64,000 nucleotides of DNA. It comes from Laetmonice hystrix. Lineage: Eukaryota. Shown piece after piece: positions 1 to 60,534 of the stretch. The position numbers and the translations under genes are program-made. The stretch is taken from contig OZ249436.1 of the NCBI GenBank assembly GCA_965235115.1, positions 21,516,001-21,580,000 on the forward strand, read 5' to 3'. The number at the start of each line of letters is the position of its first letter. Within the stretch, counting starts at the first letter, position 1. Below the pieces are notes generated by a model. The model ran no database searches. It was not told the origin of the DNA and was given only the letters and a program-made list of their open reading frames with translations.

Positions 1-422
1 TCTCCAGATTTTAACATTAGATGCTCCTCGCCAGTACCTTTCATTTCCACTACCTCACTGTAGTGTTTGCATGACTACTAGGACAGTCGGTAAGATGTAC
101 GGACTTCTCACTCTACTGGTTGGCCCCCACACTGCTTGGCCTCACAGTGTACTGTTTGGCCTCACTGTACTCTTTGGCCTCACTGTAGTGTTCGCTGGGG
201 TGCTAGGCCAGCCAGTACCTTGTAGCGATTCCTCACTGTACCGTTTGTCCTCCCTGTACCGTTTGCTTGTATACAACAGTAGCCAGTAATATAGGGACGC
301 CTCATCTTTCATCTTTCCATGCCTTTATTGTCCAGGAGGCAGGCCATACGTTTCGTCTATCATCTACTCCCATCTAATCTATGTCCCTTACAGACCATCT
401 GGAAGCGTGCGACAACGTTGTC

Positions 423-487
423 AGGTCGTCCCAATGACTGTTTGCCGTAAAGGTTTAGTTAACAATGGCAAATGACGTTGTACGCCT
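423..487 (+). ncRNA. Candidate pre-miRNA-like hairpin H1 (one per unit; first copy given)
   Basis: Hand-fold: AGG[T]CGT[CC]CAATG[A]C[T]GTTTGCCGT / 16-nt loop / ATGGCAAAT G[A]CGTTG[T]ACG CCT, ~21 bp including G:U pairs, which favours the + strand. Observed variants lie in the loop, at the A.A mismatch, or convert U-A to U-G. No match to a miRNA I recognise. Confidence 0.35.
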
Positions 488-607
488 TTTCTATATCAGA
501 TATCCCATCCCCAAGTAAGAAACAAAAAGAAAGAGTACAGAGGTGTTGCAGGCAAGGAACACCAGGGTGCAGCGCAGCTCTACTGAAGCGGCGGCGGGGG
601 CGGCGAC

Positions 608-669
608 TGCACTGCCATCTTCCGGCTACCGGTGGAATCACCACGTATACCTGGCCGGGCTGGCGGGCA
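608..669 (+). ncRNA. Candidate hairpin H2 (GC-rich; one per unit)
   Basis: TGC[A]CTGCCA[TCT]TCCGGCTA pairs with TGGCCGGG[C]TGGCGGGCA (~17 bp), extendable at both ends. The 3' arm appears invariant across the array, but some unit classes carry stem-disrupting SNPs in the 5' arm. Confidence 0.22.
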
Positions 670-764
670 CCTGTGGCTCTTAGGTTACAGTAATGAGAAG
701 CGAAAAATGGCTACTATTTTGATACGTCAAATTGAAACTACGCCCCCCAAAGTTATGATTCTTA

Positions 765-823
765 GGCCAGATGTATCACTGTCAAACGTATAGGTCTCGT
801 ACGTTCGCTACAGATATATGGTT
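765..823 (+). ncRNA. Candidate pre-miRNA-like hairpin H3 (one per unit)
   Basis: GGCC[AG]ATGTAT[CA]CTGT[CA]AACGTAT / 7-nt loop / GTACGTT[CGCT]ACAG ATATAT GGTT, ~21 bp. The loop is the most variable part (AGGTCTC, AGTTCTC, CGGTATC, CGGTATT, +7-nt insertion) while the inner arms are conserved even in the diverged edge copies. Confidence 0.33.
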
Positions 824-911
824 GTGATGTGTAGGCCTATGCTTCCCATTTGAGTATCTTCTCCAGATTTTAACATTAGATGCTCCTCGCCAGTACCTTT
901 CATTTCCACTA

Positions 912-1134
912 CCTCACTGTAGTGTTTGCATGACTACTAGGACAGTCGGTAAGATGTACGGACTTCTCACTCTACTGGTTGGCCCCCCACACTGCTTGGC
1001 CTCACAGTGTACTGTTTGGCCTCACTGTACTCTTTGGCCTCACTGTAGTGTTCGCTGGGGTGCTAGGCCAGCCAGTACCTTGTAGCGATTCCTCACTGTA
1101 CCGTTTGTCCTCCCTGTACCGTTTGCTTGTATAC
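912..1134. repeat. Degenerate ~18-bp sub-repeat inside each unit (consensus TGTTTGGCCTCACTGTAC)
   Basis: Multiple degenerate copies, e.g. TGCTTGGCCTCACAGTGTAC-TGTTTGGCCTCACTGTAC-TCTTTGGCCTCACTGTAG and CCTCACTGTACCGTTTGT-CCTCCCTGTACCGTTTGC. The diverged copy at 60,955-61,148 has a different copy number. Confidence 0.9.
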
Positions 1135-3604
1135 AACAGTAGCCAGTAATATAGGGACGCCTCATGTTTCATGTTTCCATGCCTTTATTGTCCAGGAGGC
1201 AGGCCATACGTTTCGTCTATCATCTACTCCCATCTAATCTATGTCCCTTACAGACCATCTGTAAGCGTGCGACAACGTTGTCAGGTCGTCCCAATGACTG
1301 TTTGCCGTAAAGGTTTAGTTAACAATGGCAAATGACGTTGTACGCCTTTTCTATATCAGATATCCCATCCCCAAGTAAGAAACATAAAGAAAGAGTACAG
1401 AGGTGTTGCAGGCAAGGAACACCAGGGTGCAGCGCAGCTCTACTGAAGCGGCGGCGGGGGCGGCGACTGCACTGCCATCTTCCGGCTACCGGTGGAATCA
1501 CCACGTATACCTGGCCGGGCTGGCGGGCACCTGTGGCTCTTAGGTTAAAGTAATGAGAAGCGAAAAATGGCTACTATTCTGATACGTCAAATTGAAACTA
1601 CGCCCCCCAAAGTTATGATTCTTAGGCCAGATGTATCACTGTCAAACGTATAGTTCTCTTACGTTCGCTACAGATATATGGTTGTGATGTGTATGCTTCC
1701 CATTTGAGTATCTTTTCCAGATTTTAACATTAGATGCTCCTCGCCAGTACCTTTCATTTCCACTACCTCACTGTAGTGTTTGCATGACTACTAGGACAGT
1801 CGGTAAGATGTACGGACTTCTTACTCTACTGGTTGGCCCCCCACACTGCTTGGCCTCACAGTGTACTGTTTGGCCTCACTGTACTCTTTGGCCTCACTGT
1901 AGTGTTCGCTGGGGTGCTAGGCCAGCCAGTACCTTGTAGCGATTCCTCACTGTACCGTTTGTCCTCCCTGTACCGTTTGCTTGTATACAACAGTAGCCAG
2001 TAATATAGGGACGCCTCATGTTTCATGTTTCCATGCCTTTATTGTCCAGGAGGCAGGCCATACGTTTCGTCTATGATCTACTCCCATCTAATCTGTGTCC
2101 CCTACAGACTATCTTTAAGCGTGCGACAACGTTGTCAGGTCGTCCCAATGACTGTTTGCCGTAAAGGTTTAGTTAACAATGGCAAATGACGTTGTACGCC
2201 TTTTCTATATCAGATATCCCATCCCCAAGTAAGAAACAAAAAGAAAGAGTACAGAGGTGTTGCAGGCAAGAAAAACCAGGTTGCAGCGCAGCTCTACTAA
2301 AGCGGCGGCGGGGGCGGCGACTGCACTGCCATCTTCCGGCTACCGGTGGAATCACCACGTATACCTGGCCGGGCTGGCGGGCACCTGTGGCTCTTAGGTT
2401 AAAGTAATGAGAAGCGAAAAATGGCTACTATTTTGATACGTCAAATTGAAACTACGCCCCCCAAAGTTATGATTCTTAGGCCAGATGTATCACTGTCAAA
2501 CGTATAGGTCTCGTAGGGCCTACGTTCGCTACAGATATATGGTTGTGATGTGTAGGCCTATGCTTCCCATTTGAGTATCTTCTCCAGATTTTAACATTAG
2601 ATGCTCCTCGCCAGTACCTTTCATTTCCACTACCTCACTGTAGTGTTTGCATGACTACTAGGACAGTCGGTAAGATGTACGGACTTCTCACTCTACTGGT
2701 TGGCCCCCCACACTGCTTGGCCTCACAGTGTACTGTTTGGCCTCACTGTACTCTTTGGCCTCACTGTAGTGTTCGCTGGGGTGCTAGGCCAGCCAGTACC
2801 TTGTAGCGATTCCTCACTGTACCGTTTGTCCTCCCTGTACCGTTTGCTTGTATACAACAGTAGCCAGTAATATAGGGACGCCTCATGTTTCATGTTTCCA
2901 TGCCTTTATTGTCCAGGAGGCAGGCCATACGTTTCGTCTATCATCTACTCCCATCTAATCTATGTCCCTTACAGACCATCTGTAAGCGTGCGACAACGTT
3001 GTCAGGTCGTCCCAATGACTGTTTGCCGTAAAGGTTTAGTTAACAATGGCAAATGACGTTGTACGCCTTTTCTATATCAGATATCCCATCCCCAAGTAAG
3101 AAACATAAAGAAAGAGTACAGAGGTGTTGCAGGCAAGGAACACCAGGGTGCAGCGCAGCTCTACTGAAGCGGCGGCGGGGGCGGCGACTGCACTGCCATC
3201 TTCCGGCTACCAGTGGAATCACCACGTATACCTGGCCGGGCTGGCGGGCACCTGTGGCTCTTAGGTTAAAGTAATGAGAAGCGAAAAATGGCTACTATTC
3301 TGATACGTCAAATTGAAACTACGCCCCCCAAAGTTATGATTCTTAGGCCAGATGTATCACTGTCAAACGTATAGTTCTCTTACGTTCGCTACAGATATAT
3401 GGTTGTGATGTGTATGCTTCCCATTTGAGTATCTTTTCCAGATTTTAACATTAGATGCTCCTCGCCAGTACCTTTCATTTCCACTACCTCACTGTAGTGT
3501 TTGCATGACTACTAGGACAGTCGGTAAGATGTACGGACTTCTTACTCTACTGGTTGGCCCCCCACACTGCTTGGCCTCACAGTGTACTGTTTGGCCTCAC
3601 TGTA

Positions 3605-3615
3605 CTCTAAGTCTT
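3605..3615. mobile_element. Probable excision footprint of the 166-bp MITE (CTCT-AAG-TCTT replacing CTCTT); also at 15003, 18443 (AGG variant), 25513, 34305, 37752, 39483, 47610, 49341
   Basis: A +6-bp variant at exactly the MITE target site. It consists of both TSD copies, each missing the element-proximal base, joined by complementary (palindromic) bases. Confidence 0.75.
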
Positions 3616-6600
3616 TGGCCTCACTGTAGTGTTCGCTGGGGTGCTAGGCCAGCCAGTACCTTGTAGCGATTCCTCACTGTACCGTTTGTCCTCCCTGTAC
3701 CGTTTGCTTGTATACAACAGTAGCCAATAATATAGGGACGCCTCATGTTTCATGTTTCCATGCCTTTATTGTCCAGGAGGCAGGCCATACGTTTCGTCTA
3801 TCATCTACTCCCATCTAATCTATGTCCCTTACAGACCATCTGTAAGCGTGCGACAACGTTGTCAGGTCGTCCCAATGACTGTTTGCCGTAAAGGTTTAGT
3901 TAACAATGGCAAATGACGTTGTACGCCTTTTCTATATCAGATATCCCATCCCCAAGTAAGAAACAAAAAGAAAGAGTACAGAGGTGTTGCAGGCAAGAAA
4001 AACCAGGTTGCAGCGCAGCTCTACTAAAGCGGCGGCGGGGGCGGCGACTGCACTGCCATCTTCCGGCTACCGGTGGAATCACCACGTATACCTGGCCGGG
4101 CTGGCGGGCACCTGTGGCTCTTAGGTTAAAGTAATGAGAAGCGAAAAATGGCTACTATTCTGATACGTCAAATTGAAACTACGCCCCCCCCCAAAAAGAA
4201 AGTTATGATTCTTAGGCCAGATGTATCACTGTCAAACGTATAGTTCTCGTACGTTCGCTACAGATATATGGTTGTGATGTGTATATGCTTCCCATTTGAG
4301 TATCTTCTCCAGATTTTAACATTAGATGCTCCTCGCCAGTAGCCTACCTTTCATTTCCACTACCTCACTGTAGTGTTTGCATGACTACTAGGACAGTCTG
4401 TAAGATGTAGGGACTTCCCACTCTACTCGTTGCCCCCCGCCCCCCACACTGCTTGGCCTCACAGTGTACTGTTTGGCCTCACTGTACTCTTTGGCCTCAC
4501 TGTAGTGTTCGCTGGGGTGCTAGGCCAGCCAGTACCTTGTAGCGATTCCTCACTGTACCGTTTGTCCTCCCTGTACCGTTTGCTTGTATACAACAGTAGC
4601 CAGTAATATAGGGACGCCTCATGTTTCATGTTTCCATGCCTTTATTGTCCAGGAGGCAGGCCATACGTTTCGTCTATCATCTACTCCCATCTAATCTGTG
4701 TCCCTACAGACTATCTTTAAGCGTGCGACAACGTTGTCAGGTCGTCCCAATGACTGTTTGCCGTAAAGGTTTAGTTAACAATGGCAAATGACGTTGTACG
4801 CCTTTTCTATATCAGATATCCCATCCCCAAGTAAGAAACAAAAAGAAAGAGTACAGAGGTGTTGCAGGCAAGAAACACCAGGGTGCAGCGCAGCTCTACT
4901 GAAGAGGCGGCGGGGGCGGCGACTGCACTGCCATCTTCCGGCTACCGGTGGAATCACCACGTATACCTGGCCGGGCTGGCGGGCACCTGTGGCTCTTAGG
5001 TTAAAGTAATGAGAAGCGAAAAATAGCTACTATTCTGATACGTCAAATTGAAACTACGCCCCCCCAAAGTTATGATTCTTAGGCCAGATGTATCACTGTC
5101 AAACGTATAGGTCTCGTACGTTCGCTACAGATATATGGTTTGATGTGTATGCTTCCCATTTGAGTATCGTCTCCAGATTTTAACATTAGATGCTCCTCGC
5201 CAGTACCTTTCATTTCCACTACCTCACTGTAGTGTTTGCATGACTACTAGGACAGTCGGTAAGATGTAGGGACTTCTCACTCTACTGGTTGGCCCCCCCC
5301 ACACTGCTTGGCCTCACAGTGTACTGTTTGGCCTCACTGTACTCTTTGGCCTCACTGTAGTGTTCGCTGGGGTGCTAGGCCAGCCAGTACCTTGTAGCGA
5401 TTCCTCACTGTACCGTTCGCCCTCCCTGTACCGTTTGCTTGTATACAACAGTAGCCAGTAATATAGGGACGCCTCATGTTTCATGTTTCCATGCCTTTGT
5501 CGTCCAGGAGACAGGCCATACCTTTCGTCTATCATCTACTCTCATCTAATCTATGTCCCTAACAGACCATCTGTAAGCGTGCGACAACGTTGTCAGGTCG
5601 TCCCAATGACTGTTTGCCGTAAATGTTTAGTTAACAATGGCAAATGACGTTGTACGCCTTTTCTATATCAGATATCCCATCCCCAAGTAAGAAACAAAAA
5701 GAAAGAGTACAGAGGTGTTGCAGGCAAGAAACACCAGGGTGCAGCGCAGCTCTACTGAAGAGGCGGCGGGGGCGGCGACTGCACTGCCATCTTCCGGCTA
5801 CCGGTGGAATCACCACGTATACCTGGCCGGGCTGGCGGGCACCTGTGGCTCTTAGGTTAAAGTAATGAGAAGCGAAAAATGGCTACTATTTTGATACGTC
5901 AAATTGAAACTACGCCCCCAAAGTTATGATTCTTAGGCCAGATGTATCACTGTCAAACGTATAGGTCTCGTACGTTCGCTAAAGATATATGGTTGTGATG
6001 TGTAGGCCTATGCTTCCCATTTGAGTATCTTCTCCAGATTTTAACATTAGATGCTCCTCGCCAGTACCTTTCATTTCCACTACCTCACTGTAGTGTTTGC
6101 ATGACTACTAGGACAGTCGGTAAGATGTACGGACTTCTCACTCTACTGGTTGGCCCCCCACACTGCTTGGCCTCACAGTGTACTGTTTGGCCTCACTGTA
6201 CTCTTTGGCCTCACTGTAGTGTTCGCTGGGGTGCTAGGCCAGCCAGTACCTTGTAGCGATTCCTCACTGTACCGTTTGTCCTCCCTGTACCGTTTGCTTG
6301 TATACAACAGTAGCCAGTAATATAGGGACGCCTCATCTTTCATCTTTCCATGCCTTTATTGTCCAGGAGGCAGGCCATACGTTTCGTCTATCATCTACTC
6401 CCATCTAATCTATGTCCCTTACAGACCATCTGTAAGCGTGCGACAACGTTGTCAGGTCGTCCCAATGACTGTTTGCCGTAAAGGTTTAGTTAACAATGGC
6501 AAATGACGTTGTACGCCTTTTCTATATCAGATATCCCATCCCCAAGTAAGAAACAAAAAGAAAGAGTACAGAGGTGTTGCAGGCAAGAAACACCAGGGTG

Positions 6601-9600
6601 CAGCGCAGCTCTACTGAAGAGGCGGCGGGGGCGGCGACTGCACTGCCATCTTCCGGCTACCGGTGGAATCACCACGTATACCTGGCCGGGCTGGCGGGCA
6701 CCTGTGGCTCTTAGGTTAAAGTAATGAGAAGCGAAAAATGGCTACTATTCTGATACGTCAAATTGAAACTACGCCCCCCCCCCCCAAAGTTATGATTCTT
6801 AGGCCAGATGTATCACTGTCAAACGTATAGGTCTCGTACGTTCGCTACAGATATACGGTTGTGATCTGTAGGCCTATGCTTCCCATTTGAGTATCTTCTC
6901 CAGATTTTAACATTAGATGCTCCTCGCCAGTACCTTTCATTTCCACTACCTCACTGTAGTGTTTGCATGACTACTAGGACAGTCGGTAAGATGTAGGGAC
7001 TTCCCACTCTACTCGTTGCCCCCCGCCCCCCACACTGCTTGGCCTCACAGTGTACTGTTTGGCCTCACTGTACTCTTTGGCCTCACTGTAGTGTTCGCTG
7101 GGGTGCTAGGCCAGCCAGTACCTTGTAGCGATTCCTCACTGTACCGTTTGTCCTCCCTGTACCGTTTGCTTGTATACAACAGTAGCCAGTAATATAGGGA
7201 CGCCTCATGTTTCATGTTTCCATGCCTTTATTGTCCAGGAGGCAGGCCATACGTTTCGTCTATGATCTACTCCCATCTAATCTATGTCCCTTACAGACCA
7301 TCTGTAAGCGTGCGACAACGTTGTCAGGTCGTCCCAATGACTGTTTGCCGTAAAGGTTTAGTTAACAATGGCAAATGACGTTGTACGCCTTTTCTATATC
7401 AGATATCCCATCCCCAAGTAAGAAACAAAAAGAAAGAGTACAGAGGTGTTGCAGGCAAGGAACACCAGGGTGCAGCGCAGCTCGACTGAAGCGGCGGCGG
7501 GGGCGGCGACTGCACTGCCATCTTCCGGCTACCGGTGGAATCACCACGTATACCTGGCCGGGCTGGCGGGCACCTGTGGCTCTTAGGTTAAAGTAATGAG
7601 AAGCAAAAAATGGCTACTATTTTGATACGTCAAATTGAAACTACGCCCCCCAAAGTTATGATTCTTAGGCCAGATGTATCACTGTCAAACGTATAGGTCT
7701 CGTACGTTCGCTACAGATATATGGTTGTGATGTGTAGGCCTATGCTTCCCATTTGAGTATCTTCTCCAGATTTTAACATTAGATGCTCCTCGCCAGTACC
7801 TTTCATTTCCACTACCTCACTGTAGTGTTTGCATGACTACTAGGACAGTCGGTAAGATGTACGGACTTCTCACTCTACTGGTTGGCCCCCCACACTGCTT
7901 GGCCTCACAGTGTACTGTTTGGCCTCACTGTACTCTTTGGCCTCACTGTAGTGTTCGCTGGGGTGCTAGGCCAGCCAGTACCTTGTAGCGATTCCTCACT
8001 GTACCGTTTGCCCTCCCTGTACCGTTTGCTTGTATACAACAGTAGCCAGTAATATAGGGACGCCTTATGTTTCATGTTTCCATGCCTTTATTGTCCAGGA
8101 GGCAGGCCATACGTTTCGTCTCTCATCTACTCCCATCTAATCTATGTCCCTTACAGACCATCTGTAAGCGTGCGACAACGTTGTCAGGTCGTCCCAATGA
8201 CTGTTTGCCGTAAAGGTTTAGTTAACAATGGCAAATGACGTTGTACGCCTTTTCTATATCAGATATCCCATCCCCAAGTAAGAAACAAAAAGAAAGAGTA
8301 CAGAGGTGTTGCAGGCAAGGAACACCAGGGTGCAGCGCAGCTCTACTGAAGCGGCGGCGGGGGCGGCGACTGCACTGCCATCTTCCGGCTACCGGTGGAA
8401 TCACCACGTATACCTGGCCGGGCTGGCGGGCACCTGTGGCTCTTAGGTTAAAGTAATGAGAAGCGAAAAATGGCTACTATTCTGATACGTCAAATTGAAA
8501 CTACGCCCCCCAAAGTTATGATTCTTAGGCCAGATGTATCACTGTCAAACGTATAGGTCTCGTACGTTCGCTACAGATATATGGTTGTGATGTGTAGGCC
8601 TATGCTTCCCATTTGAGTATCTTCTCCAGATTTTAACATTAGATGCTCCTCGCCAGTAGCCTACCTTTCATTTCCACTACCTCACTGTAGTGTTTGCATG
8701 ACTACTAGGACAGTCTGTAAGATGTAGGGACTTCCCACTCTACTCGTTGCCCCCCGCCCCCCACACTGCTTGGCCTCACAGTGTACTGTTTGGCCTCACT
8801 GTACTCTTTGGCCTCACTGTAGTGTTCGCTGGGGTGCTAGGCCAGCCAGTACCTTGTAGCGATTCCTCACTGTACCGTTTGCCCTCCTTGTACCGTTTGC
8901 TTGTATACAACAGTAGCCAGTAATATAGGGACGCCTCATGTTTCATGTTTCCATGCCTTTATTGTCCAGGAGGCAGGCCATACGTTTCGTCTATCATCTA
9001 CTCCCATCTAATCTATGTCCCTTACAGACCATCTGTAAGCGTGCGACAACGTTGTCAGGTCGTCCCAATGACTGTTTGCCGTAAAGGTTTAGTTAACAAT
9101 GGCAAATGACGTTGTACGCCTTTTCTATATAAGATATCCCATCCCCAAGTAAGAAACAAAAAGAAAGAGTACAGAGGTGTTGCAGGCAAGGAACACCAGG
9201 GTGCAGCGCAGCTCTACTGAAGCGGCGGCGGGGGCGGCGACTGCACTGCCATCTTCCGGCTACCGGTGGAATCACCACGTATACCTGGCCGGGCTGGCGG
9301 GCACCTGTGGCTCTTAGGTTAAAGTAATGAGAAGCGAAAAATGGCTACTATTCTGATACGTCAAATTGAAACTACGCCCCCCAAAGTTATGATTCTTAGG
9401 CCAGATGTATCACTGTCAAACGTATAGGTCTCGTACGTTCGCTACAGATATATGGTTGTGATGTGTATGCTTCCCATTTGAGTATCTTCTCCAGATTTTA
9501 ACATTAGATGCTCCTCGCCAGTACCTTTCATTTCCACTACCTCACTGTAGTGTTTGCATGACTACTAGGACAGTCGGTAAGATGTACGGACCTCTTACTC

Positions 9601-9662
9601 TACTCGTTGGCCCCCCACACTGCTTGGCCTCACAGTGTACTGTTTGGCCTCACTGTACTCTT

Positions 9663-9828
9663 CAGGGCTGTCCATCCGTCGCATTGTCGCAAATAATGTG
9701 CGACAGGGACCATAAAAATTGCGACATCGGCTTTATCAACGAATGTTTTAACTGTCTGTCGTAATCCAGACACTTTGCTCCACCCAGTTAGAATTCTGCT
9801 CTGGGATTTTCAACTGTGGCCAGCCTTG
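9663..9828. mobile_element. 166-bp non-autonomous TIR transposon (MITE), hAT-like, 5-bp TSD, copy 1
   Basis: Absent from other units. Flanked by CTCTT (9658-9662 and 9829-9833), which occurs once at the empty site. Imperfect TIR CAGGGCTGTCCA ... TGGCCAGCCTTG (10/12 match). Repeated subterminal TGTCGC/GCGACA motifs. Confidence 0.9.
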
Positions 9829-12399
9829 CTCTTTGGCCTCACTGTAGTGTTCGCTGGGGTGCTAGGCCAGCCAGTACCTTGTAGCGATTCCTCACTGTAC
9901 CGTTTGTCCTCCCTGTACCGTTTGCTTGTATACAACAGTAGCCAGTAATATAGGGACGCCTCATGTTTCATGTTTCCATGCCTTTATTGTCCAGGAGGCA
10001 GGCCATACGTTTCGTCTATCATCTACTCCCATCTAATCTATGTCCCTTACAGACCATCTGTAAGCGTGCGACAACGTTGTCAGGTCGTCCCAATGACTGT
10101 TTGCCGTAAAGGTTTAGTTAACAATGGCAAATGACGTTGTACGCCTTTTCTATATCAGATATCCCATCCCCAAGTAAGAAACAAAAAGAAAGAGTACAGA
10201 GGTGTTGCAGGCAAGAAAAACCAGGTTGCAGCGCAGCTCTACTAAAGCGGCGGCGGGGGCGGCGACTGCACTGCCATCTTCCGGCTACCGGTGGAATCAC
10301 CACGTATACCTGGCCGGGCTGGCGGGCACCTGTGGCTATTAGGTTAAAGTAATGAGAAGCGAAAAATGGCTACTATTCTGATACGTCAAATTAAAACTAC
10401 GCCCCCCCCCCCCAAAGTTATGATTCTTAGGCCAGATGTATCACTGTCAAACGTATAGTTCTCGTACGTTCGCTACAGATATATGGTTGTGATGTGTATA
10501 TGCTTCCCATTTGAGTATCTTCTCCAGATTTTAACATTAGATGCTCCTCGCCAGTAGCCTACCTTTCATTTCCACTACCTCACTGTAGTGTTTGCATGAC
10601 TACTAGGACAGTCTGTAAGATGTAGGGACTTCCCACTCTACTCGTTGCCCCCCGCCCCCCACACTGCTTGGCCTCACAGTGTACTGTTTGGCCTCACTGT
10701 ACTCTTTGGCCTCACTGTAGTGTTCGCTGGGGTGCTAGGCCAGCCAGTACCTTGTAGCGATTCCTCACTGTACCGTTTGTCCTCCCTGTACCGTTTGCTT
10801 GTATACAACAGTAGCCAGTAATATAGGGACGCCTCATGTTTCATGTTTCCATGCCTTTATTGTCCAGGAGGCAGGCCATACGTTTCGTCTATGATCTACT
10901 CCCATCTAATCTGTGTCCCCTACAGACTATCTTTAAGCGTGCGACAACGTTGTCAGGTCGTCCCAATGACTGTTTGCCGTAAAGGTTTAGTTAACAATGG
11001 CAAATGACGTTGTACGCCTTTTCTATATCAGATATCCCATCCCCAAGTAAGAAACAAAAAGAAAGAGTACAGAGGTGTTGCAGGCAAGAAAAACCAGGTT
11101 GCAGCGCAGCTCTACTAAAGCGGCGGCGGGGGCGGCGACTGCACTGCCATCTTCCGGCTACCGGTGGAATCACCACGTATACCTGGCCGGGCTGGCGGGC
11201 ACCTGTGGCTCTTAGGTTAAAGTAATGAGAAGCGAAAAATGGCTACTATTTTGATACGTCAAATTGAAACTACGCCCCCCAAAGTTATGATTCTTAGGCC
11301 AGATGTATCACTGTCAAACGTATAGGTCTCGTAGGGCCTACGTTCGCTACAGATATATGGTTGTGATGTGTAGGCCTATGCTTCCCATTTGAGTATCTTC
11401 TCCAGATTTTAACATTAGATGCTCCTCGCCAGTACCTTTCATTTCCACTACCTCACTGTAGTGTTTGCATGACTACTAGGACAGTCAGTAAGATGTACGG
11501 ACTTCTCACTCTACTGGTTGGCCCCCACACTGCTTGGCCTCACAGTGTACTGTTTGGCCTCACTGTACTCTTTGGCCTCACTGTAGTGTTCGCTGGGGTG
11601 CTAGGCCAGCCAGTACCTTGTAGCGATTCCTCACTGTACCGTTTGTCCTCCCTGTACCGTTTGCTTGTATACAACAGTAGCCAGTAATATAGGGACGCCT
11701 CATCTTTCATCTTTCCATGCCTTTATTGTCCAGGAGGCAGGCCATACGTTTCGTCTATCATCTACTCCCATCTAATCTATGTCCCTTACAGACCATCTGG
11801 AAGCGTGCGACAACGTTGTCAGGTCGTCCCAATGACTGTTTGCCGTAAAGGTTTAGTTAACAATGGCAAATGACGTTGTACGCCTTTTCTATATCAGATA
11901 TCCCATCCCCAAGTAAGAAACAAAAAGAAAGAGTACAGAGGTGTTGCAGGCAAGGAACACCAGGGTGCAGCGCAGCTCTACTGAAGCGGCGGCGGGGGCG
12001 GCGACTGCACTGCCATCTTCCGGCTACCGGTGGAATCACCACGTATACCTGGCCGGGCTGGCGGGCACCTGTGGCTCTTAGGTTACAGTAATGAGAAGCG
12101 AAAAATGGCTACTATTTTGATACGTCAAATTGAAACTACGCCCCCCAAAGTTATGATTCTTAGGCCAGATGTATCACTGTCAAACGTATAGGTCTCGTAC
12201 GTTCGCTACAGATATATGGTTGTGATGTGTAGGCCTATGCTTCCCATTTGAGTATCTTCTCCAGATTTTAACATTAGATGCTCCTCGCCAGTACCTTTCA
12301 TTTCCACTACCTCACTGTAGTGTTTGCATAACTACTAGGACAGTCGGTAAGATGTACGGACTTCTCACTCTACTGGTTGGCCCCCCACACTGCTTGGCC

Positions 12400-15300
12400 T
12401 CACAGTGTACTGTTTGGCCTCACTGTACTCTTTGGCCTCACTGTAGTGTTCGCTGGGGTGCTAGGCCAGCCAGTACCTTGTAGCGATTCCTCACTGTACC
12501 GTTTGTCCTCCCTGTACCGTTTGCTTGTATACAACAGTAGCCAGTAATATAGGGACGCCTCATGTTTCATGTTTCCATGCCTTTATTGTCCAGGAGGCAG
12601 GCCATACGTTTCGTCTATCATCTACTCCCATCTAATCTATGTCCCTTACAGACCATCTGTAAGCGTGCGACAACGTTGTCAGGTCGTCCCAATGACTGTT
12701 TGCCGTAAAGGTTTAGTTAACAATGGCAAATGACGTTGTACGCCTTTTCTATATCAGATATCCCATCCCCAAGTAAGAAACATAAAGAAAGAGTACAGAG
12801 GTGTTGCAGGCAAGGAACACCAGGGTGCAGCGCAGCTCTACTGAAGCGGCGGCGGGGGCGGCGACTGCACTGCCATCTTCCGGCTACCGGTGGAATCACC
12901 ACGTATACCTGGCCGGGCTGGCGGGCACCTGTGGCTCTTAGGTTAAAGTAATGAGAAGCGAAAAATGGCTACTATTCTGATACGTCAAATTGAAACTACG
13001 CCCCCCAAAGTTATGATTCTTAGGCCAGATGTATCACTGTCAAACGTATAGTTCTCTTACGTTCGCTACAGATATATGGTTGTGATGTGTATGCTTCCCA
13101 TTTGAGTATCTTTTCCAGATTTTAACATTAGATGCTCCTCGCCAGTACCTTTCATTTCCACTACCTCACTGTAGTGTTTGCATGACTACTAGGACAGTCG
13201 GTAAGATGTACGGACTTCTTACTCTACTGGTTGGCCCCCCACACTGCTTGGCCTCACAGTGTACTGTTTGGCCTCACTGTACTCTTTGGCCTCACTGTAG
13301 TGTTCGCTGGGGTGCTAGGCCAGCCAGTACCTTGTAGCGATTCCTCACTGTACCGTTTGTCCTCCCTGTACCGTTTGCTTGTATACAACAGTAGCCAGTA
13401 ATATAGGGACGCCTCATGTTTCATGTTTCCATGCCTTTATTGTCCAGGAGGCAGGCCATACGTTTCGTCTATGATCTACTCCCATCTAATCTGTGTCCCC
13501 TACAGACTATCTTTAAGCGTGCGACAACGTTGTCAGGTCGTCCCAATGACTGTTTGCCGTAAAGGTTTAGTTAACAATGGCAAATGACGTTGTACGCCTT
13601 TTCTATATCAGATATCCCATCCCCAAGTAAGAAACAAAAAGAAAGAGTACAGAGGTGTTGCAGGCAAGAAAAACCAGGTTGCAGCGCAGCTCTACTAAAG
13701 CGGCGGCGGGGGCGGCGACTGCACTGCCATCTTCCGGCTACCGGTGGAATCACCACGTATACCTGGCCGGGCTGGCGGGCACCTGTGGCTCTTAGGTTAA
13801 AGTAATGAGAAGCGAAAAATGGCTACTATTTTGATACGTCAAATTGAAACTACGCCCCCCAAAGTTATGATTCCTAGGCCAGATGTATCACTGTCAAACG
13901 TATAGGTCTCGTAGGGCCTACGTTCGCTACAGATATATGGTTGTGATGTGTAGGCCTATGCTTCCCATTTGAGTATCTTCTCCAGATTTTAACATTAGAT
14001 GCTCCTCGCCAGTACCTTTCATTTCCACTACCTCACTGTAGTGTTTGCATGACTACTAGGACAGTCGGTAAGATGTACGGACTTCTCACTCTACTGGTTG
14101 GCCCCCCACACTGCTTGGCCTCACAGTGTACTGTTTGGCCTCACTGTACTCTTTGGCCTCACTGTAGTGTTCGCTGGGGTGCTAGGCCAGCCAGTACCTT
14201 GTAGCGATTCCTCACTGTACCGTTTGTCCTCCCTGTACCGTTTGCTTGTATACAACAGTAGCCAGTAATATAGGGACGCCTCATGTTTCATGTTTCCATG
14301 CCTTTATTGTCCAGGAGGCAGGCCATACGTTTCGTCTATCATCTACTCCCATCTAATCTATGTCCCTTACAGACCATCTGTAAGCGTGCGACAACGTTGT
14401 CAGGTCGTCCCAATGACTGTTTGCCGTAAAGGTTTAGTTAACAATGGCAAATGACGTTGTACGCCTTTTCTATATCAGATATCCCATCCCCAAGTAAGAA
14501 ACATAAAGAAAGAGTACAGAGGTGTTGCAGGCAAGGAACACCAGGGTGCAGCGCAGCTCTACTGAAGCGGCGGCGGGGGCGGCGACTGCACTGCCATCTT
14601 CCGGCTACCAGTGGAATCACCACGTATACCTGGCCGGGCTGGCGGGCACCTGTGGCTCTTAGGTTAAAGTAATGAGAAGCGAAAAATGGCTACTATTCTG
14701 ATACGTCAAATTGAAACTACGCCCCCCAAAGTTATGATTCTTAGGCCAGATGTATCACTGTCAAACGTATAGTTCTCTTACGTTCGCTACAGATATATGG
14801 TTGTGATGTGTATGCTTCCCATTTGAGTATCTTTTCCAGATTTTAACATTAGATGCTCCTCGCCAGTACCTTTCATTTCCACTACCTCACTGTAGTGTTT
14901 GCATGACTACTAGGACAGTCGGTAAGATGTACGGACTTCTTACTCTACTGGTTGGCCCCCCACACTGCTTGGCCTCACAGTGTACTGTTTGGCCTCACTG
15001 TACTCTAGGTCTTTGGCCTCACTGTAGTGTTCGCTGGGGTGCTAGGCCAGCCAGTACCTTGTAGCGATTCCTCACTGTACCGTTTGTCCTCCCTGTACCG
15101 TTTGCTTGTATACAACAGTAGCCAATAATATAGGGACGCCTCATGTTTCATGTTTCCATGCCTTTATTGTCCAGGAGGCAGGCCATACGTTTCGTCTATC
15201 ATCTACTCCCATCTAATCTATGTCCCTTACAGACCATCTGTAAGCGTGCGACAACGTTGTCAGGTCGTCCCAATGACTGTTTGCCGTAAAGGTTTAGTTA

Positions 15301-18300
15301 ACAATGGCAAATGACGTTGTACGCCTTTTCTATATCAGATATCCCATCCCCAAGTAAGAAACAAAAAGAAAGAGTACAGAGGTGTTGCAGGCAAGAAAAA
15401 CCAGGTTGCAGCGCAGCTCTACTAAAGCGGCGGCGGGGGCGGCGACTGCACTGCCATCTTCCGGCTACCGGTGGAATCACCACGTATACCTGGCCGGGCT
15501 GGCGGGCACCTGTGGCTCTTAGGTTAAAGTAATGAGAAGCGAAAAATGGCTACTATTCTGATACGTCAAATTGAAACTACGCCCCCCAAAGTTATGATTC
15601 TTAGGCCAGATGTATCACTGTCAAACGTATAGTTCTCGTACGTTCGCTACAGATATATGGTTGTGATGTGTATGCTTCCCTTTTGAGTATCTTCTCCAGA
15701 TTTTAAAATTAGATGCTCCTCGCCAGTAGGCTACCTTTCATTTCCACTACCTCACTGTAGTGTTTGCATGACTACTAGGACAGTCGGTAAGATGTACGGA
15801 CTTCTCACTCTACTGGTTGGCCCCCCACACTGCTTGGCCTCACAGTGTACTGTTTGGCCTCACTGTACTCTTTGGCCTCACTGTAGTGTTCGCTGGGGTG
15901 CTAGGCCAGCCAGTACCTTGTAGCGATTCCTCACTGTACCGTTTGTCCTCCCTGTACCGTTTGCTTGTATACAACAGTAGCCAGTAATATAGGGACGCCT
16001 CATGTTTCATGTTTCCATGCCTTTATTGTCCAGGAGGCAGGCCATACGTTTCGTCTATCATCTACTCCCATCTAATCTATGTCCCTTACAGACCATCTGT
16101 AAGCGTGCGACAACGTTGTCAGGTCGTCCCAATGACTGTTTGCCGTAAAGGTTTAGTTAACAATGGCAAATGACGTTGTACGCCTTTTCTATATCAGATA
16201 TCCCATCCCCAAGTAAGAAACATAAAGAAAGAGTACAGAGGTGTTGCAGGCAAGGAACACCAGGGTGCAGCGCAGCTCTACTGAAGCGGCGGCGGGGGCG
16301 GCGACTGCACTGCCATCTTCCGGCTACCGGTGGAATCACCACGTATACCTGGCCGGGCTGGCGGGCACCTGTGGCTCTTAGGTTAAAGTAATGAGAAGCG
16401 AAAAATGGCTACTATTCTGATACGTCAAATTGAAACTACGCCCCCCAAAGTTATGATTCTTAGGCCAGATGTATCACTGTCAAACGTATAGTTCTCTTAC
16501 GTTCGCTACAGATATATGGTTGTGATGTGTATGCTTCCCATTTGAGTATCTTTTCCAGATTTTAACATTAGATGCTCCTCGCCAGTACCTTTCATTTCCA
16601 CTACCTCACTGTAGTGTTTGCATGACTACTAGGACAGTCGGTAAGATGTACGGACTTCTTACTCTACTGGTTGGCCCCCCACACTGCTTGGCCTCACAGT
16701 GTACTGTTTGGCCTCACTGTACTCTTTGGCCTCACTGTAGTGTTCGCTGGGGTGCTAGGCCAGCCAGTACCTTGTAGCGATTCCTCACTGTACCGTTTGT
16801 CCTCCCTGTACCGTTTGCTTGTATACAACAGTAGCCAGTAATATAGGGACGCCTCATGTTTCATGTTTCCATGCCTTTATTGTCCAGGAGGCAGGCCATA
16901 CGTTTCGTCTATGATCTACTCCCATCTAATCTGTGTCCCCTACAGACTATCTTTAAGCGTGCGACAACGTTGTCAGGTCGTCCCAATGACTGTTTGCCGT
17001 AAAGGTTTAGTTAACAATGGCAAATGACGTTGTACGCCTTTTCTATATCAGATATCCCATCCCCAAGTAAGAAACAAAAAGAAAGAGTACAGAGGTGTTG
17101 CAGGCAAGAAAAACCAGGTTGCAGCGCAGCTCTACTAAAGCGGCGGCGGGGGCGGCGACTGCACTGCCATCTTCCGGCTACCGGTGGAATCACCACGTAT
17201 ACCTGGCCGGGCTGGCGGGCACCTGTGGCTCTTAGGTTAAAGTAATGAGAAGCGAAAAATGGCTACTATTTTGATACGTCAAATTGAAACTACGCCCCCC
17301 AAAGTTATGATTCCTAGGCCAGATGTATCACTGTCAAACGTATAGGTCTCGTAGGGCCTACGTTCGCTACAGATATATGGTTGTGATGTGTAGGCCTATG
17401 CTTCCCATTTGAGTATCTTCTCCAGATTTTAACATTAGATGCTCCTCGCCAGTACCTTTCATTTCCACTACCTCACTGTAGTGTTTGCATGACTACTAGG
17501 ACAGTCGGTAAGATGTACGGACTTCTCACTCTACTGGTTGGCCCCCCACACTGCTTGGCCTCACAGTGTACTGTTTGGCCTCACTGTACTCTTTGGCCTC
17601 ACTGTAGTGTTCGCTGGGGTGCTAGGCCAGCCAGTACCTTGTAGCGATTCCTCACTGTACCGTTTGTCCTCCCTGTACCGTTTGCTTGTATACAACAGTA
17701 GCCAGTAATATAGGGACGCCTCATGTTTCATGTTTCCATGCCTTTATTGTCCAGGAGGCAGGCCATACGTTTCGTCTATCATCTACTCCCATCTAATCTA
17801 TGTCCCTTACAGACCATCTGTAAGCGTGCGACAACGTTGTCAGGTCGTCCCAATGACTGTTTGCCGTAAAGGTTTAGTTAACAATGGCAAATGACGTTGT
17901 ACGCCTTTTCTATATCAGATATCCCATCCCCAAGTAAGAAACATAAAGAAAGAGTACAGAGGTGTTGCAGGCAAGGAACACCAGGGTGCAGCGCAGCTCT
18001 ACTGAAGCGGCGGCGGGGGCGGCGACTGCACTGCCATCTTCCGGCTACCAGTGGAATCACCACGTATACCTGGCCGGGCTGGCGGGCACCTGTGGCTCTT
18101 AGGTTAAAGTAATGAGAAGCGAAAAATGGCTACTATTCTGATACGTCAAATTGAAACTACGCCCCCCAAAGTTATGATTCTTAGGCCAGATGTATCACTG
18201 TCAAACGTATAGTTCTCTTACGTTCGCTACAGATATATGGTTGTGATGTGTATGCTTCCCATTTGAGTATCTTTTCCAGATTTTAACATTAGATGCTCCT

Positions 18301-19215
18301 CGCCAGTACCTTTCATTTCCACTACCTCACTGTAGTGTTTGCATGACTACTAGGACAGTCGGTAAGATGTACGGACTTCTTACTCTACTGGTTGGCCCCC
18401 CACACTGCTTGGCCTCACAGTGTACTGTTTGGCCTCACTGTACTCTAGGTCTTTGGCCTCACTGTAGTGTTCGCTGGGGTGCTAGGCCAGCCAGTACCTT
18501 GTAGCGATTCCTCACTGTACCGTTTGTCCTCCCTGTACCGTTTGCTTGTATACAACAGTAGCCAATAATATAGGGACGCCTCATGTTTCATGTTTCCATG
18601 CCTTTATTGTCCAGGAGGCAGGCCATACGTTTCGTCTATCATCTACTCCCATCTAATCTATGTCCCTTACAGACCATCTGTAAGCGTGCGACAACGTTGT
18701 CAGGTCGTCCCAATGACTGTTTGCCGTAAAGGTTTAGTTAACAATGGCAAATGACGTTGTACGCCTTTTCTATATCAGATATCCCATCCCCAAGTAAGAA
18801 ACAAAAAGAAAGAGTACAGAGGTGTTGCAGGCAAGAAAAACCAGGTTGCAGCGCAGCTCTACTAAAGCGGCGGCGGGGGCGGCGACTGCACTGCCATCTT
18901 CCGGCTACCGGTGGAATCACCACGTATACCTGGCCGGGCTGGCGGGCACCTGTGGCTCTTAGGTTAAAGTAATGAGAAGCGAAAAATGGCTACTATTCTG
19001 ATACGTCAAATTGAAACTACGCCCCCCAAAGTTATGATTCTTAGGCCAGATGTATCACTGTCAAACGTATAGTTCTCGTACGTTCGCTACAGATATATGG
19101 TTGTGATGTGTATGCTTCCCTTTTGAGTATCTTCTCCAGATTTTAAAATTAGATGCTCCTCGCCAGTAGGCTACCTTTCATTTCCACTACCTCACTGTAG
19201 TGTTTGCATGACTAC
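12400..19215. repeat. 3,440-bp (4-unit) tandem higher-order duplication; boundaries approximate
   Basis: Anchors 12717/16157, 13571/17011, 14438/17878 and 15298/18738 are all 3,440 apart. Private variants TTCCTAGGCC (~13874/17314) and CTCTAGGTCTT (15003/18443) occur only in this pair. Confidence 0.88.
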
Positions 19216-20173
19216 TAGGACAGTCGGTAAGATGTAGGGACATCCCACTCTACTCGTTGCCCCCCGCCCCCCCACACTGCTTGGCCTCACAGTGTACTGT
19301 TTGGCCTCACTGTACTCTTTGGCCTCACTGTAGTGTTCGCTGGGGTGCTAGGCCAGCCAGTACCTTGTAGCGATTCCTCACTGTACCGTTTGTCCTCCCT
19401 GTACCGTTTGCTTGTATACAACAGTAGCCAGTAATATAGGGACGCCTCATGTTTCATGTTTCCATGCCTTTATTGTCCAGGAGGCAGGCCATACGTTTCG
19501 TCTATGATCTACTCCCATCTAATCTGTGTCCCCTACAGACTATCTTTAAGCGTGCGACAACGTTGTCAGGTCGTCCCAATGACTGTTTGCCGTAAAGGTT
19601 TAGTTAACAATGGCAAATGACGTTGTACGCCTTTTCTATATAAGATATCCCATCCCCAAGTAAGAAACAAAAAGAAAGAGTACAGAGGTGTTGCAGGCAA
19701 GGAACACCAGGGTGCAGCGCAGCTCTACTGAAGCGGCGGCGGGGGCGGCGACTGCACTGCCATCTTCCGGCTACCGGTGGAATCACCACGTATACCTGGC
19801 CGGGCTGGCGGGCACCTGTGGCTCTTAGGTTAAAGTAATGAGAAGCGAAAAATGGCTACTATTCTGATACGTCAAATTGAAACTACGCCCCCCAAAGTTA
19901 TGATTCTTAGGCCAGATGTATCACTGTCAAACGTATAGGTCTCGTACGTTCGCTACAGATATATGGTTGTGATGTGTATGCTTCCCATTTGAGTATCTTC
20001 TCCAGATTTTAACATTAGATGCTCCTCGCCAGTACCTTTCATTTCCACTACCTCACTGTAGTGTTTGCATGACTACTAGGACAGTCGGTAAGATGTACGG
20101 ACCTCTTACTCTACTCGTTGGCCCCCCACACTGCTTGGCCTCACAGTGTACTGTTTGGCCTCACTGTACTCTT

Positions 20174-20339
20174 CAGGGCTGTCCATCCGTCGCATTGTCG
20201 CAAATAATGTGCGACAGGGACCATAAAAATTGCGACATCGGCTTTATCAACGAATGTTTTAACTGTCTGTCGCAATCCAGACACTTTGCTCCACCCAGTT
20301 AGAATTCTGCTCTGGGATTTTCAACTGTGGCCAGCCTTG
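20174..20339. mobile_element. 166-bp hAT-like MITE, copy 2 (propagated by array duplication)
   Basis: Same sequence, same site and same CTCTT TSD as copy 1; same linked SNPs (CTATATAAGAT, GGACCTCTTAC). Confidence 0.9.
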
Positions 20340-23300
20340 CTCTTTGGCCTCACTGTAGTGTTCGCTGGGGTGCTAGGCCAGCCAGTACCTTGTAGCGATT
20401 CCTCACTGTACCGTTTGTCCTCCCTGTACCGTTTGCTTGTATACAACAGTAGCCAGTAATATAGGGACGCCTCATGTTTCATGTTTCCATGCCTTTATTG
20501 TCCAGGAGGCAGGCCATACGTTTCGTCTATCATCTACTCCCATCTAATCTATGTCCCTTACAGACCATCTGTAAGCGTGCGACAACGTTGTCAGGTCGTC
20601 CCAATGACTGTTTGCCGTAAAGGTTTAGTTAACAATGGCAAATGACGTTGTACGCCTTTTCTATATCAGATATCCCATCCCCAAGTAAGAAACAAAAAGA
20701 AAGAGTACAGAGGTGTTGCAGGCAAGAAAAACCAGGTTGCAGCGCAGCTCTACTAAAGCGGCGGCGGGGGCGGCGACTGCACTGCCATCTTCCGGCTACC
20801 GGTGGAATCACCACGTATACCTGGCCGGGCTGGCGGGCACCTGTGGCTCTTAGGTTAAAGTAATGAGAAGCGAAAAATGGCTACTATTCTGATACGTCAA
20901 ATTAAAACTACGCCCCCCCCCCCAAAGTTATGATTCTTAGGCCAGATGTATCACTGTCAAACGTATAGTTCTCGTACGTTCGCTACAGATATATGGTTGT
21001 GATGTGTATATGCTTCCCATTTGAGTATCTTCTCCAGATTTTAACATTAGATGCTCCTCGCCAGTAGCCTACCTTTCATTTCCACTACCTCACTGTAGTG
21101 TTTGCATGACTACTAGGACAGTCTGTAAGATGTAGGGACTTCCCACTCTACTCGTTGCCCCCCGCCCCCCACACTGCTTGGCCTCACAGTGTACTGTTTG
21201 GCCTCACTGTACTCTTTGGCCTCACTGTAGTGTTCGCTGGGGTGCTAGGCCAGCCAGTACCTTGTAGCGATTCCTCACTGTACCGTTTGTCCTCCCTGTA
21301 CCGTTTGCTTGTATACAACAGTAGCCAGTAATATAGGGACGCCTCATGTTTCATGTTTCCATGCCTTTATTGTCCAGGAGGCAGGCCATACGTTTCGTCT
21401 ATGATCTACTCCCATCTAATCTGTGTCCCCTACAGACTATCTTTAAGCGTGCGACAACGTTGTCAGGTCGTCCCAATGACTGTTTGCCGTAAAGGTTTAG
21501 TTAACAATGGCAAATGACGTTGTACGCCTTTTCTATATCAGATATCCCATCCCCAAGTAAGAAACAAAAAGAAAGAGTACAGAGGTGTTGCAGGCAAGAA
21601 AAACCAGGTTGCAGCGCAGCTCTACTAAAGCGGCGGCGGGGGCGGCGACTGCACTGCCATCTTCCGGCTACCGGTGGAATCACCACGTATACCTGGCCGG
21701 GCTGGCGGGCACCTGTGGCTCTTAGGTTAAAGTAATGAGAAGCGAAAAATGGCTACTATTTTGATACGTCAAATTGAAACTACGCCCCCCAAAGTTATGA
21801 TTCTTAGGCCAGATGTATCACTGTCAAACGTATAGGTCTCGTAGGGCCTACGTTCGCTACAGATATATGGTTGTGATGTGTAGGCCTATGCTTCCCATTT
21901 GAGTATCTTCTCCAGATTTTAACATTAGATGCTCCTCGCCAGTACCTTTCATTTCCACTACCTCACTGTAGTGTTTGCATGACTACTAGGACAGTCGGTA
22001 AGATGTACGGACTTCTCACTCTACTGGTTGGCCCCCACACTGCTTGGCCTCACAGTGTACTGTTTGGCCTCACTGTACTCTTTGGCCTCACTGTAGTGTT
22101 CGCTGGGGTGCTAGGCCAGCCAGTACCTTGTAGCGATTCCTCACTGTACCGTTTGTCCTCCCTGTACCGTTTGCTTGTATACAACAGTAGCCAGTAATAT
22201 AGGGACGCCTCATCTTTCATCTTTCCATGCCTTTATTGTCCAGGAGGCAGGCCATACGTTTCGTCTATCATCTACTCCCATCTAATCTATGTCCCTTACA
22301 GACCATCTGTAAGCGTGCGACAACGTTGTCAGGTCGTCCCAATGACTGTTTGCCGTAAAGGTTTAGTTAACAATGGCAAATGACGTTGTACGCCTTTTCT
22401 ATATCAGATATCCCATCCCCAAGTAAGAAACAAAAAGAAAGAGTACAGAGGTGTTGCAGGCAAGGAACACCAGGGTGCAGCGCAGCTCTACTGAAGCGGC
22501 GGCGGGGGCGGCGACTGCACTGCCATCTTCCGGCTACCGGTGGAATCACCACGTATACCTGGCCGGGCTGGCGGGCACCTGTGGCTCTTAGGTTACAGTA
22601 ATGAGAAGCGAAAAATGGCTACTATTTTGATACGTCAAATTGAAACTACGCCCCCCAAAGTTATGATTCTTAGGCCAGATGTATCACTGTCAAACGTATA
22701 GGTCTCGTACGTTCGCTACAGATATATGGTTGTGATGTGTAGGCCTATGCTTCCCATTTGAGTATCTTCTCCAGATTTTAACATTAGATGCTCCTCGCCA
22801 GTACCTTTCATTTCCACTACCTCACTGTAGTGTTTGCATGACTACTAGGACAGTCGGTAAGATGTACGGACTTCTCACTCTACTGGTTGGCCCCCCACAC
22901 TGCTTGGCCTCACAGTGTACTGTTTGGCCTCACTGTACTCTTTGGCCTCACTGTAGTGTTCGCTGGGGTGCTAGGCCAGCCAGTACCTTGTAGCGATTCC
23001 TCACTGTACCGTTTGTCCTCCCTGTACCGTTTGCTTGTATACAACAGTAGCCAGTAATATAGGGACGCCTCATGTTTCATGTTTCCATGCCTTTATTGTC
23101 CAGGAGGCAGGCCATACGTTTCGTCTATCATCTACTCCCATCTAATCTATGTCCCTTACAGACCATCTGTAAGCGTGCGACAACGTTGTCAGGTCGTCCC
23201 AATGACTGTTTGCCGTAAAGGTTTAGTTAACAATGGCAAATGACGTTGTACGCCTTTTCTATATCAGATATCCCATCCCCAAGTAAGAAACATAAAGAAA

Positions 23301-28098: not shown

Positions 28099-28264
28099 CA
28101 GGGCTGTCCATCCGTCGCATTGTCGCAAATAATGTGCGACAGGGACCATAAAAATTGCGACATCGGCTTTATCAACGAATGTTTTAACTGTCTGTCGCAA
28201 TCCAGACACTTTGCTCCACCCAGTTAGAATTCTGCTCTGGGATTTTCAACTGTGGCCAGCCTTG
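28099..28264. mobile_element. 166-bp hAT-like MITE, copy 3 (propagated by array duplication)
   Basis: Same sequence, site, TSD and linked SNPs as copies 1 and 2. Confidence 0.9.
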
Positions 28265-60312: not shown

Positions 60313-60416
60313 TCATATCAAAAAATCCTTTGACGTGCATCATGCCAGGATGGTACCTGATCTTGTGTTCAAATATGAAAATGATTGTTCCGCACGTTTC
60401 TGAGATATCGCTGTTC

Positions 60417-60488
60417 ACGGACGGACGGACGTACGGACGTACGGACGTACGGACGGACGGCCGGACGGACGGACGGACGGACGGACAG
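60417..60488. repeat. (ACGG)n/(ACGT) tetranucleotide microsatellite within the Helentron-like element
   Basis: ACGGACGGACGGACGTACGGACGT... is directly visible. Confidence 0.97.
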
Positions 60489-60534
60489 AGGGTGAATCAT
60501 AAGCCCCCAAAACCCGATGGGTTTGGGGGCTAAA

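Follow-up and report, generated by a model that had tools for sequence, protein, structure and literature searches.

The window analysed here is a stretch of 64,000 nucleotides from Laetmonice hystrix (contig OZ249436.1), and from its first position to about position 58704 it consists of a single head-to-tail array on the plus strand, made up of units 846-878 bp (about 860 bp) in length. Array units were 95-100% identical to the unit at 861-1720, and the copies at the array edge were 78-86% identical to it. A tandem unit of about 860 bp in some 67 copies had been described in the initial annotation, and this was borne out: the hairpin H1 provided 68 anchors in the window, 67 in the array and one in an edge copy, on plus-strand units of the lengths given above. 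The ends of a second hairpin, H2, occurred 66 times in the window, and the two ends of a third, H3, occurred 68 and 60 times. The main features are listed in Table 1.

Table 1. Features of the array, of its monomer and of the array edge (positions in the window; hairpins are given for the first unit)
Feature	Positions	Strand	Description
Main tandem array	1..58704	+	About 67 monomers of about 860 bp, 48% GC; extends past the left edge of the window
Left third of monomer (unit 1)	45..270	+	18-bp subrepeats; 77-bp internal duplication at 73% identity
Upstream competitor segment	405..423	+	Rival partner of the H1 3' arm when folding is unconstrained
H1	423..487	+	24-bp hairpin lacking a lower stem; all 68 copies have a T4 run at 487-490
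H1 3' flank	488..516	+	Pyrimidine run, CAG at 497-499, C-rich block, CNNC at 506-509, donor-like GTAAG at 515
H2	608..669	+	GC-rich hairpin; 30-bp extended stem confined to the main type; variation at background
H3	765..823	+	Weak hairpin, z -0.75; background variation, with insertions in loop and 3' arm
Last array unit	58173..58704	+	Mosaic of main type and then edge type, as seen from the loop allele at 458 and the 3' end; cut by the insertion
HINE/Helentron-like insertion, about 1.83 kb	58705..60531	-	Interrupts the A-run of an edge-type unit
Edge copies	60532..61790	+	One partial copy, one full 846-bp copy (85.6% identity) and one decayed start

Monomer classes, assigned to the 63 units that were cut, recur in a higher-order arrangement with a block of about 10.5 kb and a block of 9.86 kb, the latter of which contains a partial unit of about 325 bp. 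Two partial units of 324 bp (42783-43106 and 52641-52964) were each inherited within a higher-order block, as was an internal duplication of about 170 bp that was seen in three units (9491-10523, 20002-21033 and 27927-28959). The monomer is non-coding: its longest stop-to-stop frame is 85 amino acids, and frameshifting insertions are common. A candidate protein-coding exon at 8-89 was rejected, as edge copies lack its acceptor AG and 18 of 66 units carry a 5-nt insertion. The 18-bp subrepeats and the 77-bp duplication in the left third indicate that the monomer grew out of shorter repeats. A long head-to-tail array, non-coding monomers and higher-order repeats, by which satellite DNA is recognized, are all found in this window.

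The insertion that cuts the last array unit has a terminal palindrome, a 4-bp microsatellite (60417-60486) and a central duplication of about 350 bp at 94%, an anatomy that the accessible text of PMC4067079 ascribes to HINE/DINE-1 elements. It showed no similarity to the unit. The A-run into which it inserted has 7 A in the empty copy and 2 and 8 A on the two sides of the insertion. Unit sequence resumes at 60532, and the array decays near 61,790. The edge copies carry many alleles that are in the majority in the genome. About 2 kb beyond the array end is the last coding exon of an annexin gene (63728-63853, minus strand), the best relative of which is 63% identical.

The unit was also present in four public sequencing runs, here called X1 to X4. 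At a threshold of 80% likeness, 80,720 contigs from X1, 77,848 from X2 and 28,031 from X3 aligned to the unit at 525-1385, and most were 90-99% alike; these three runs represent one sample, and the number of contigs is not a copy number. Coverage in X1-X3 included 30 of 30 bins of the unit, with a summed depth near 1e7 in many bins. When depth is divided by 31 to account for word overlap, and then by an assumed single-copy depth of 30-100, the copy number of the family would be in the thousands, a rough depth-based estimate rather than a measurement. Sixteen of 40 listed variant rows (of 99) were the edge-copy alleles of the window, at 58-98% in X1, indicating that the family majority is close to the edge type and that the subfamily in the main array is young and local. 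High copy number and subfamilies beyond the array, which are also expected of a satellite, were thus seen with 28,031-80,720 contigs per run. The fourth run, from a different organism, was rejected as an outgroup because 38 of the 40 listed variant rows were common with X1 at appreciable depth; the exceptions were at 841, where the variant was absent from X4, and at 683, where it was near-absent from X1-X3. Only 76 contigs of X4 aligned to the unit, and its organism may be a close relative, or the run may contain trace DNA of the X1-X3 organism. GT..AG ends were found at none of the 15 alignment joints listed (of 171), which is no test of splicing, since the runs look genomic.

The initial annotation had interpreted H1, H2 and H3 as the hairpins of a three-microRNA cluster. 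When cut out at the boundaries given there, which were chosen after the fact, all three fold as drawn, and each was compared with 200 shuffles. H1 had a folding energy of -17.3 kcal/mol (z -1.96, 8 of 200 shuffles as good, MFEI 0.60), H2 -28.5 kcal/mol (z -2.45, 5 of 200 shuffles as good, MFEI 0.71) and H3 -13.0 kcal/mol (z -0.75, 45 of 200 shuffles as good, MFEI 0.50). It had also been proposed that the folds work on the plus strand alone; this was true of H1, for which the minus strand had a z-score of -0.21, and untrue of H3, for which the minus strand (-12.6 kcal/mol, z -1.47) was equal to the plus strand. The numbers of base pairs were 24 in H1, 21 in H2 and 20 in H3, all above the imperfect precursor stem of at least 16 base pairs that is one of the four criteria of MirGeneDB in the accessible text of PMC12539619. 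This comparison is uninformative for the unit, as 18 pairs are also reached in about 15 windows on each strand and in each shuffle. The remaining criteria concern reads, which should come from both arms with homogeneous 5' ends and 2-nt offsets.

Hairpins were no more frequent in the unit than expected by chance. A loose scan found 16 on the plus strand and 15 on the minus strand, and 12-18 in each of 8 shuffles, while at three stricter cut-offs, each tested with 150 shuffles, the main plus strand had 3, 1 and 1 hairpins where the shuffles averaged 3.27, 0.73 and 0.40. Mean pair probabilities in the context of the unit, for main and edge types, were 0.34 and 0.39 for H1, 0.13 and 0.12 for H2, and 0.34 and 0.21 for H3, and at these values (0.12-0.39) none of the three is the dominant fold in main or edge units. 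When unit 1 was folded with its flanks, the H1 and H3 folds were displaced. The main unit has its best short hairpin at 1009-1078 (26 bp, -29.5), which is none of the three. Another 26-bp hairpin, in the subrepeat region at 149-219 on the plus strand, was stronger than H1-H3 at -30.3 kcal/mol; 4 of its paired positions were variable (10.3 expected), 3 of them pair-breaking, which placed it third of 30 hairpins. A minus-strand hairpin at 351-415 (z -4.5 in unit 1) was rejected: it needs a rare allele at 402, has a z-score of -1.9 with the common allele, and contains 7 pair-breaking sites.

Variation among the copies was first counted in 49 of the approximately 67 main units, which is the sample for the joint test of the three hairpins and for a 186-nt block around H1 (340-525). 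As claimed, this block had 9 substitutions relative to the edge copy. Several points were in favor of a three-microRNA transcript: the hairpins jointly varied less than the rest of the unit (23/186 versus 133/673 positions, P 0.024), variable CpG positions in them numbered 2 of 26 versus 14 of 33, the inner arms of H3 were nearly invariant, and all three folds exist when cut out, including the 30-bp stem of H2 in the main type. However, the joint signal came mostly from H1, as H2 had 13 variable sites versus 13.5 expected and H3 had 11 versus 11.2 expected.

Further tests used the window data alone, comprising 66 whole units and 3 edge pieces with 141 variable sites, and the expected numbers of sites were matched by class (CpG, other C/G, A/T). 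In H2, 9 of 42 paired positions were variable (8.3 expected), and 6 of these 9 break pairs. Its lower stem was found in the main type only, the long stem being absent from the edge type. In H3, 5 of 40 paired positions were variable (6.4 expected) and all 5 were pair-breaking, including 777 C>A, which is the majority allele in X1 (63%). The H3 loop was as variable as had been reported, with six alleles, but the arms were not kept as reported, given these five positions and insertions of 6-8 nt in the 3' arm of 5 copies. The lower stem of H3 was weak (-15.9 kcal/mol over 89 nt). H2 and H3 are probably chance folds.

H1 was different. Only 1 of its 48 paired positions was variable in the window data, versus 8.4 expected (P 0.002), and when the 40 listed of the 99 variant rows from the runs were added, it was still 1 of 48 versus 9.7 expected (P 0.0007). 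The single variable paired position is a wobble change, and none is pair-breaking, whereas 3 unpaired positions were variable (2.2-2.5 expected). All four variants of H1 (452 G>T, 458 G>A, 437 A>G and 465 A>G) leave the structure unaffected, as had been described, with pairing in 192 of 192 cells. Among 30 loose hairpins from both strands, in which 156 of 216 variants were pair-breaking, H1 ranked first and was the only one without a pair-breaking variant, again with the 40 listed of 99 rows. All eight of its CpG positions were invariant, though CpG was the most variable class. The 83 nt upstream (340-422) had 15 variable sites versus 16.1 expected, and a 157-nt contig from X4 that spans 1189-1345 had 3 differences, all placed upstream of H1. 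The lowest-variation windows spanned 459-524 and extend beyond the end of the hairpin.

Corrected for the 30 hairpins, the H1 signal had a P of about 0.02-0.07; corrected for the choice of the best window it was 0.13, and in block shuffles 0.28-0.47. The variant sites are not independent, as they travel in haplotype blocks. Compensatory pairs were found in none of the 24 pairs of H1, the 30 of H2 or the 20 of H3. The evidence that the arm-restricted constraint on H1 is real is suggestive and falls short of proof.

No lower stem formed below H1 even when the fold was forced; about 11-13 bp would be expected below a Drosha cut. The free fold was better than H1 by 3.4-3.8 kcal/mol, with the upstream segment at 405-423 capturing the outer 3' arm, and only an inner 9-bp helix was common to H1 and its rival folds with 25-nt flanks. 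By eye, 405-423 and 426-448, the latter in the 5' arm of H1, are a diverged tandem duplication of about 21 nt. Both copies can pair with 465-485, which results in two competing folds. The long rival fold of 405-485 was rejected, 3 of its 28 pairs being broken by real variants.

The canonical distance for a CNNC motif is 16-18 nt, and in the 3' flank of H1 it lies 17 nt past 489. CNNC is among the motifs annotated in MirGeneDB (PMC6943042, accessible text). Variation across 488-524 was not significantly low, with 4 variable sites seen and 6.1 expected. Two microexon-like modules (branch, pyrimidine run, CAG, 7 or 15 nt, and GTAAG donor) are present on the plus strand at 394-400 and 500-514, and the GTAAG donors of both vary among copies. 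A 3'-tailed mirtron, which the available part of PMC4513878 describes as having a splice donor at the 5' end of the hairpin and a branch point at its 3' base, was rejected for H1, as the GT at 425 is a poor intronic consensus and the branch-like A at 475 lies within the 3' arm.

Searches for known RNA families, genes and motifs yielded little. The check for a known family in Rfam found no match to the unit at gathering score, and the two matches at E<=10 were chance matches. No tRNA was found in the unit, nor did pattern scans of it find an A or B box, a plus-strand TATA, a plus-strand poly(A) hexamer or a hammerhead core. The TATA result applies to unit 1 and the edge copy, and a non-consensus promoter is beyond a scan of this kind. 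An Sm-like site matched the pattern in the edge copy only, with position 719 being C in 28 of 49 main copies. Hammerhead, SL RNA, tRNA-like and Pol III internal-promoter readings were rejected on the Rfam, tRNA and pattern results. An 18-mer of the H1 3' arm was found at 13 metagenome loci, and since none is similar beyond 18-28 nt, these matches are attributed to chance. Six arm words had no occurrence in the main texts of open papers that were searched; supplementary miRNA tables may bear on the statement that no known miRNA is recognized here. Among the matches listed for annelid tandem miRNA arrays (7) and for polychaete satellites (20 of 910, none containing the word polychaete), none described this repeat. 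The unit may also loosely resemble the ends of Y RNAs and the primer site of a retrotransposon.

The explanation that we prefer, with modest confidence, is a complex satellite DNA family of high copy number, with the unit as its monomer and with hairpins that are chance folds. The tandem and higher-order structure, the abundance and diversity of the family, the chance-level folding and the background variation of H2 and H3 all count toward this, and the array is classified as satellite DNA rather than a microRNA cluster because H1 has no lower stem and no hairpin is the dominant fold. The monomer would have arisen from short internal repeats, with head-to-tail amplification following, presumably by unequal exchange. 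The window would represent a young, locally homogenized subfamily with higher-order repeats, with older, majority-like copies surviving at the array edge, where the mobile element has inserted. Any role of the array would be expected at the DNA level, possibly of heterochromatin or centromere type, rather than through a three-microRNA transcript. The low variation of H1 would then reflect either the luckiest outcome among some 30 possible hairpins or a conserved DNA box. What counts against the satellite explanation is that the constraint on H1 tracks the fold, with variable sites at 1 of 48 paired positions and at 3 unpaired positions and with normal variation in the 83 nt upstream.

A second explanation, tentative but a real possibility, is that each unit carries one functional hairpin RNA, with H1 as the candidate, in which case the array would be a dosage-amplified small-RNA locus and the rest of the unit a freely drifting spacer or promoter. 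An RNA hairpin would account for the arm-restricted constraint that ranks H1 first of 30, for four of four variants being structure-neutral and eight of eight CpG positions invariant, and for a fold that is much better on the plus strand than on the minus strand. H1 also has the size of a pre-miRNA and more than the minimum of 16 pairs (PMC12539619, accessible text), a T4 directly after the stem in all 68 copies, a CNNC at 17 nt, and an inner 9-bp helix that survives in the rival folds with 25-nt flanks. Without a lower stem, H1 would need a Drosha-independent release. The most likely route would be one in which the ends of the transcript match those of the hairpin (423 to about 489), so that it reaches Dicer directly, and canonical Drosha processing is less likely. 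The same missing stem counts against the hairpin RNA, as do the free fold that is 3.4-3.8 kcal/mol better, an MFEI of 0.60, the lack of compensatory change, and the lack of a Pol III A/B box or an upstream TATA by pattern. Likewise, the corrected P is only 0.02-0.07, on non-independent sites and with 40 of 99 run-variant rows listed, and the copy number estimated here is far above the approximately 300-450 promoters given for miR-430 in the accessible part of 10.1101/2021.08.09.455629. The full form of this proposal, a multi-thousand-copy array with one Drosha-independent H1 per monomer that is released by transcript ends at the stem base and the U run and diced to a lineage-specific RNA of about 22 nt, is unlikely.

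It is distinctly unlikely that the conserved stretch is instead an element acting at the DNA level, either a protein-binding box or, on the minus strand, the core of a short Pol II unit. Consistent with such an element are a pair of inverted half-sites (441-446/466-471), a near-palindrome at 495-503, lowest-variation windows that run past the end of the hairpin, and a minus-strand order of TATA-like (495-488), Inr-like (475-470) and poly(A) hexamer (329-324) motifs, the hexamer switching between its two common forms (AATAAA among main copies, ATTAAA in the edge copy). However, about one such hexamer is expected by chance per 1,720 positions, by simple arithmetic, the motif order alone is at chance level, and the hexamer is disrupted in single copies, at 327 and 329. 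The spacing from TATA to Inr is canonically about 30 nt, and that seen here, about 22 nt, is below it. Nor does a DNA element predict a variable H1 loop beside invariant arms. Conserved boxes are known from invertebrate satellites with higher-order repeats, according to the accessible text of PMC3694981.

The reading of the unit as a three-hairpin pri-miRNA, a cluster like miR-430 that serves zygotic mRNA clearance, is very improbable and is unsupported by these data, because H2 and H3 are at background variation (with 6 and 5 sites that break pairs) and hairpins are equally numerous in shuffles, and further because H3 has a z-score of -0.75 and an MFEI of 0.50, H2 pairs at 0.12-0.13 in context, the long H2 stem is missing from the edge type, and no plus-strand TATA matched. 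An array of housekeeping non-coding RNA genes (5S, tRNA, snRNA or SL RNA) was rejected, with no covariance-model match, A/B boxes or conserved Sm site.

The locus can be compared with several known systems. Complex satellite DNAs with higher-order repeats and conserved boxes, of which primate alpha satellite and the satellites of Meloidogyne (PMC3694981, accessible text) are examples, have in common with the array non-coding head-to-tail monomers, higher-order repeats, subfamilies, diverged edge copies and one extra-conserved stretch. The differences are the long monomer of about 860 bp at 48% GC and a conserved stretch that follows an RNA-type stem with G:U pairs. The zebrafish miR-430 locus, according to the available part of 10.1101/2021.08.09.455629, combines a TATA promoter of 650 bp with 2-3 triplets in each unit and comprises approximately 300-450 promoters. 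It resembles the array as a one-strand, tandem, multi-copy unit with hairpin-sized elements, but its miRNAs are homologous and sequenced, whereas the three putative hairpins of the unit are mutually unrelated and two of them are unconstrained. In addition, no plus-strand TATA corresponding to the miR-430 promoter was found in the unit.

The Tribolium clusters mir-3851 and mir-3836 are multicopy and blastoderm-specific in the accessible text of PMC4691753. Like the unit, they are lineage-specific multicopy hairpin loci of an invertebrate with no known homologue; they were validated by reads and by blastoderm expression, whereas the unit forms a homogeneous array of long monomers. In Aedes, the satellite-derived piRNA tapiR clears maternal mRNA and has been conserved for about 200 million years (10.1101/2020.01.15.907428, accessible part). 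The unit likewise holds a short conserved segment that is a potential source of small RNA, but its constraint covers a pair of arms complementary to each other, and no distant relative came to light. With the Tribolium clusters and the Aedes piRNA in print, the invertebrate analogue of miR-430 that was initially suggested would not be a new kind of locus.

The 860-bp repeat is probably ordinary overall, with one specific, testable prediction at 423-489. If it is a plain satellite, it is one more lineage-specific family, of use only in describing the genome of Laetmonice hystrix. If H1 is processed, it would show that a gene for a hairpin small RNA can exist, in thousands of copies, as a major satellite of a spiralian, and it would offer a direct test of whether such animals clear maternal mRNA by high-dose small RNA, as in fish, beetles and mosquitoes. 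Such an H1 array would be a dosage-amplified locus roughly ten times the size of miR-430 and would use a non-canonical route.

Two minor features of the monomer were also observed. Insertions of 5-8 bp recur at TA sites (unit positions 35, 150, 171, 800, 815, 832 and 855), several of which end in a duplicated TA and resemble transposon excision footprints, and none of which is within H1 or H2. The word ACGT occurs seven times in unit 1 (348, 415, 475, 643, 724, 786 and 801), and all seven are in its right-hand 520 bp.
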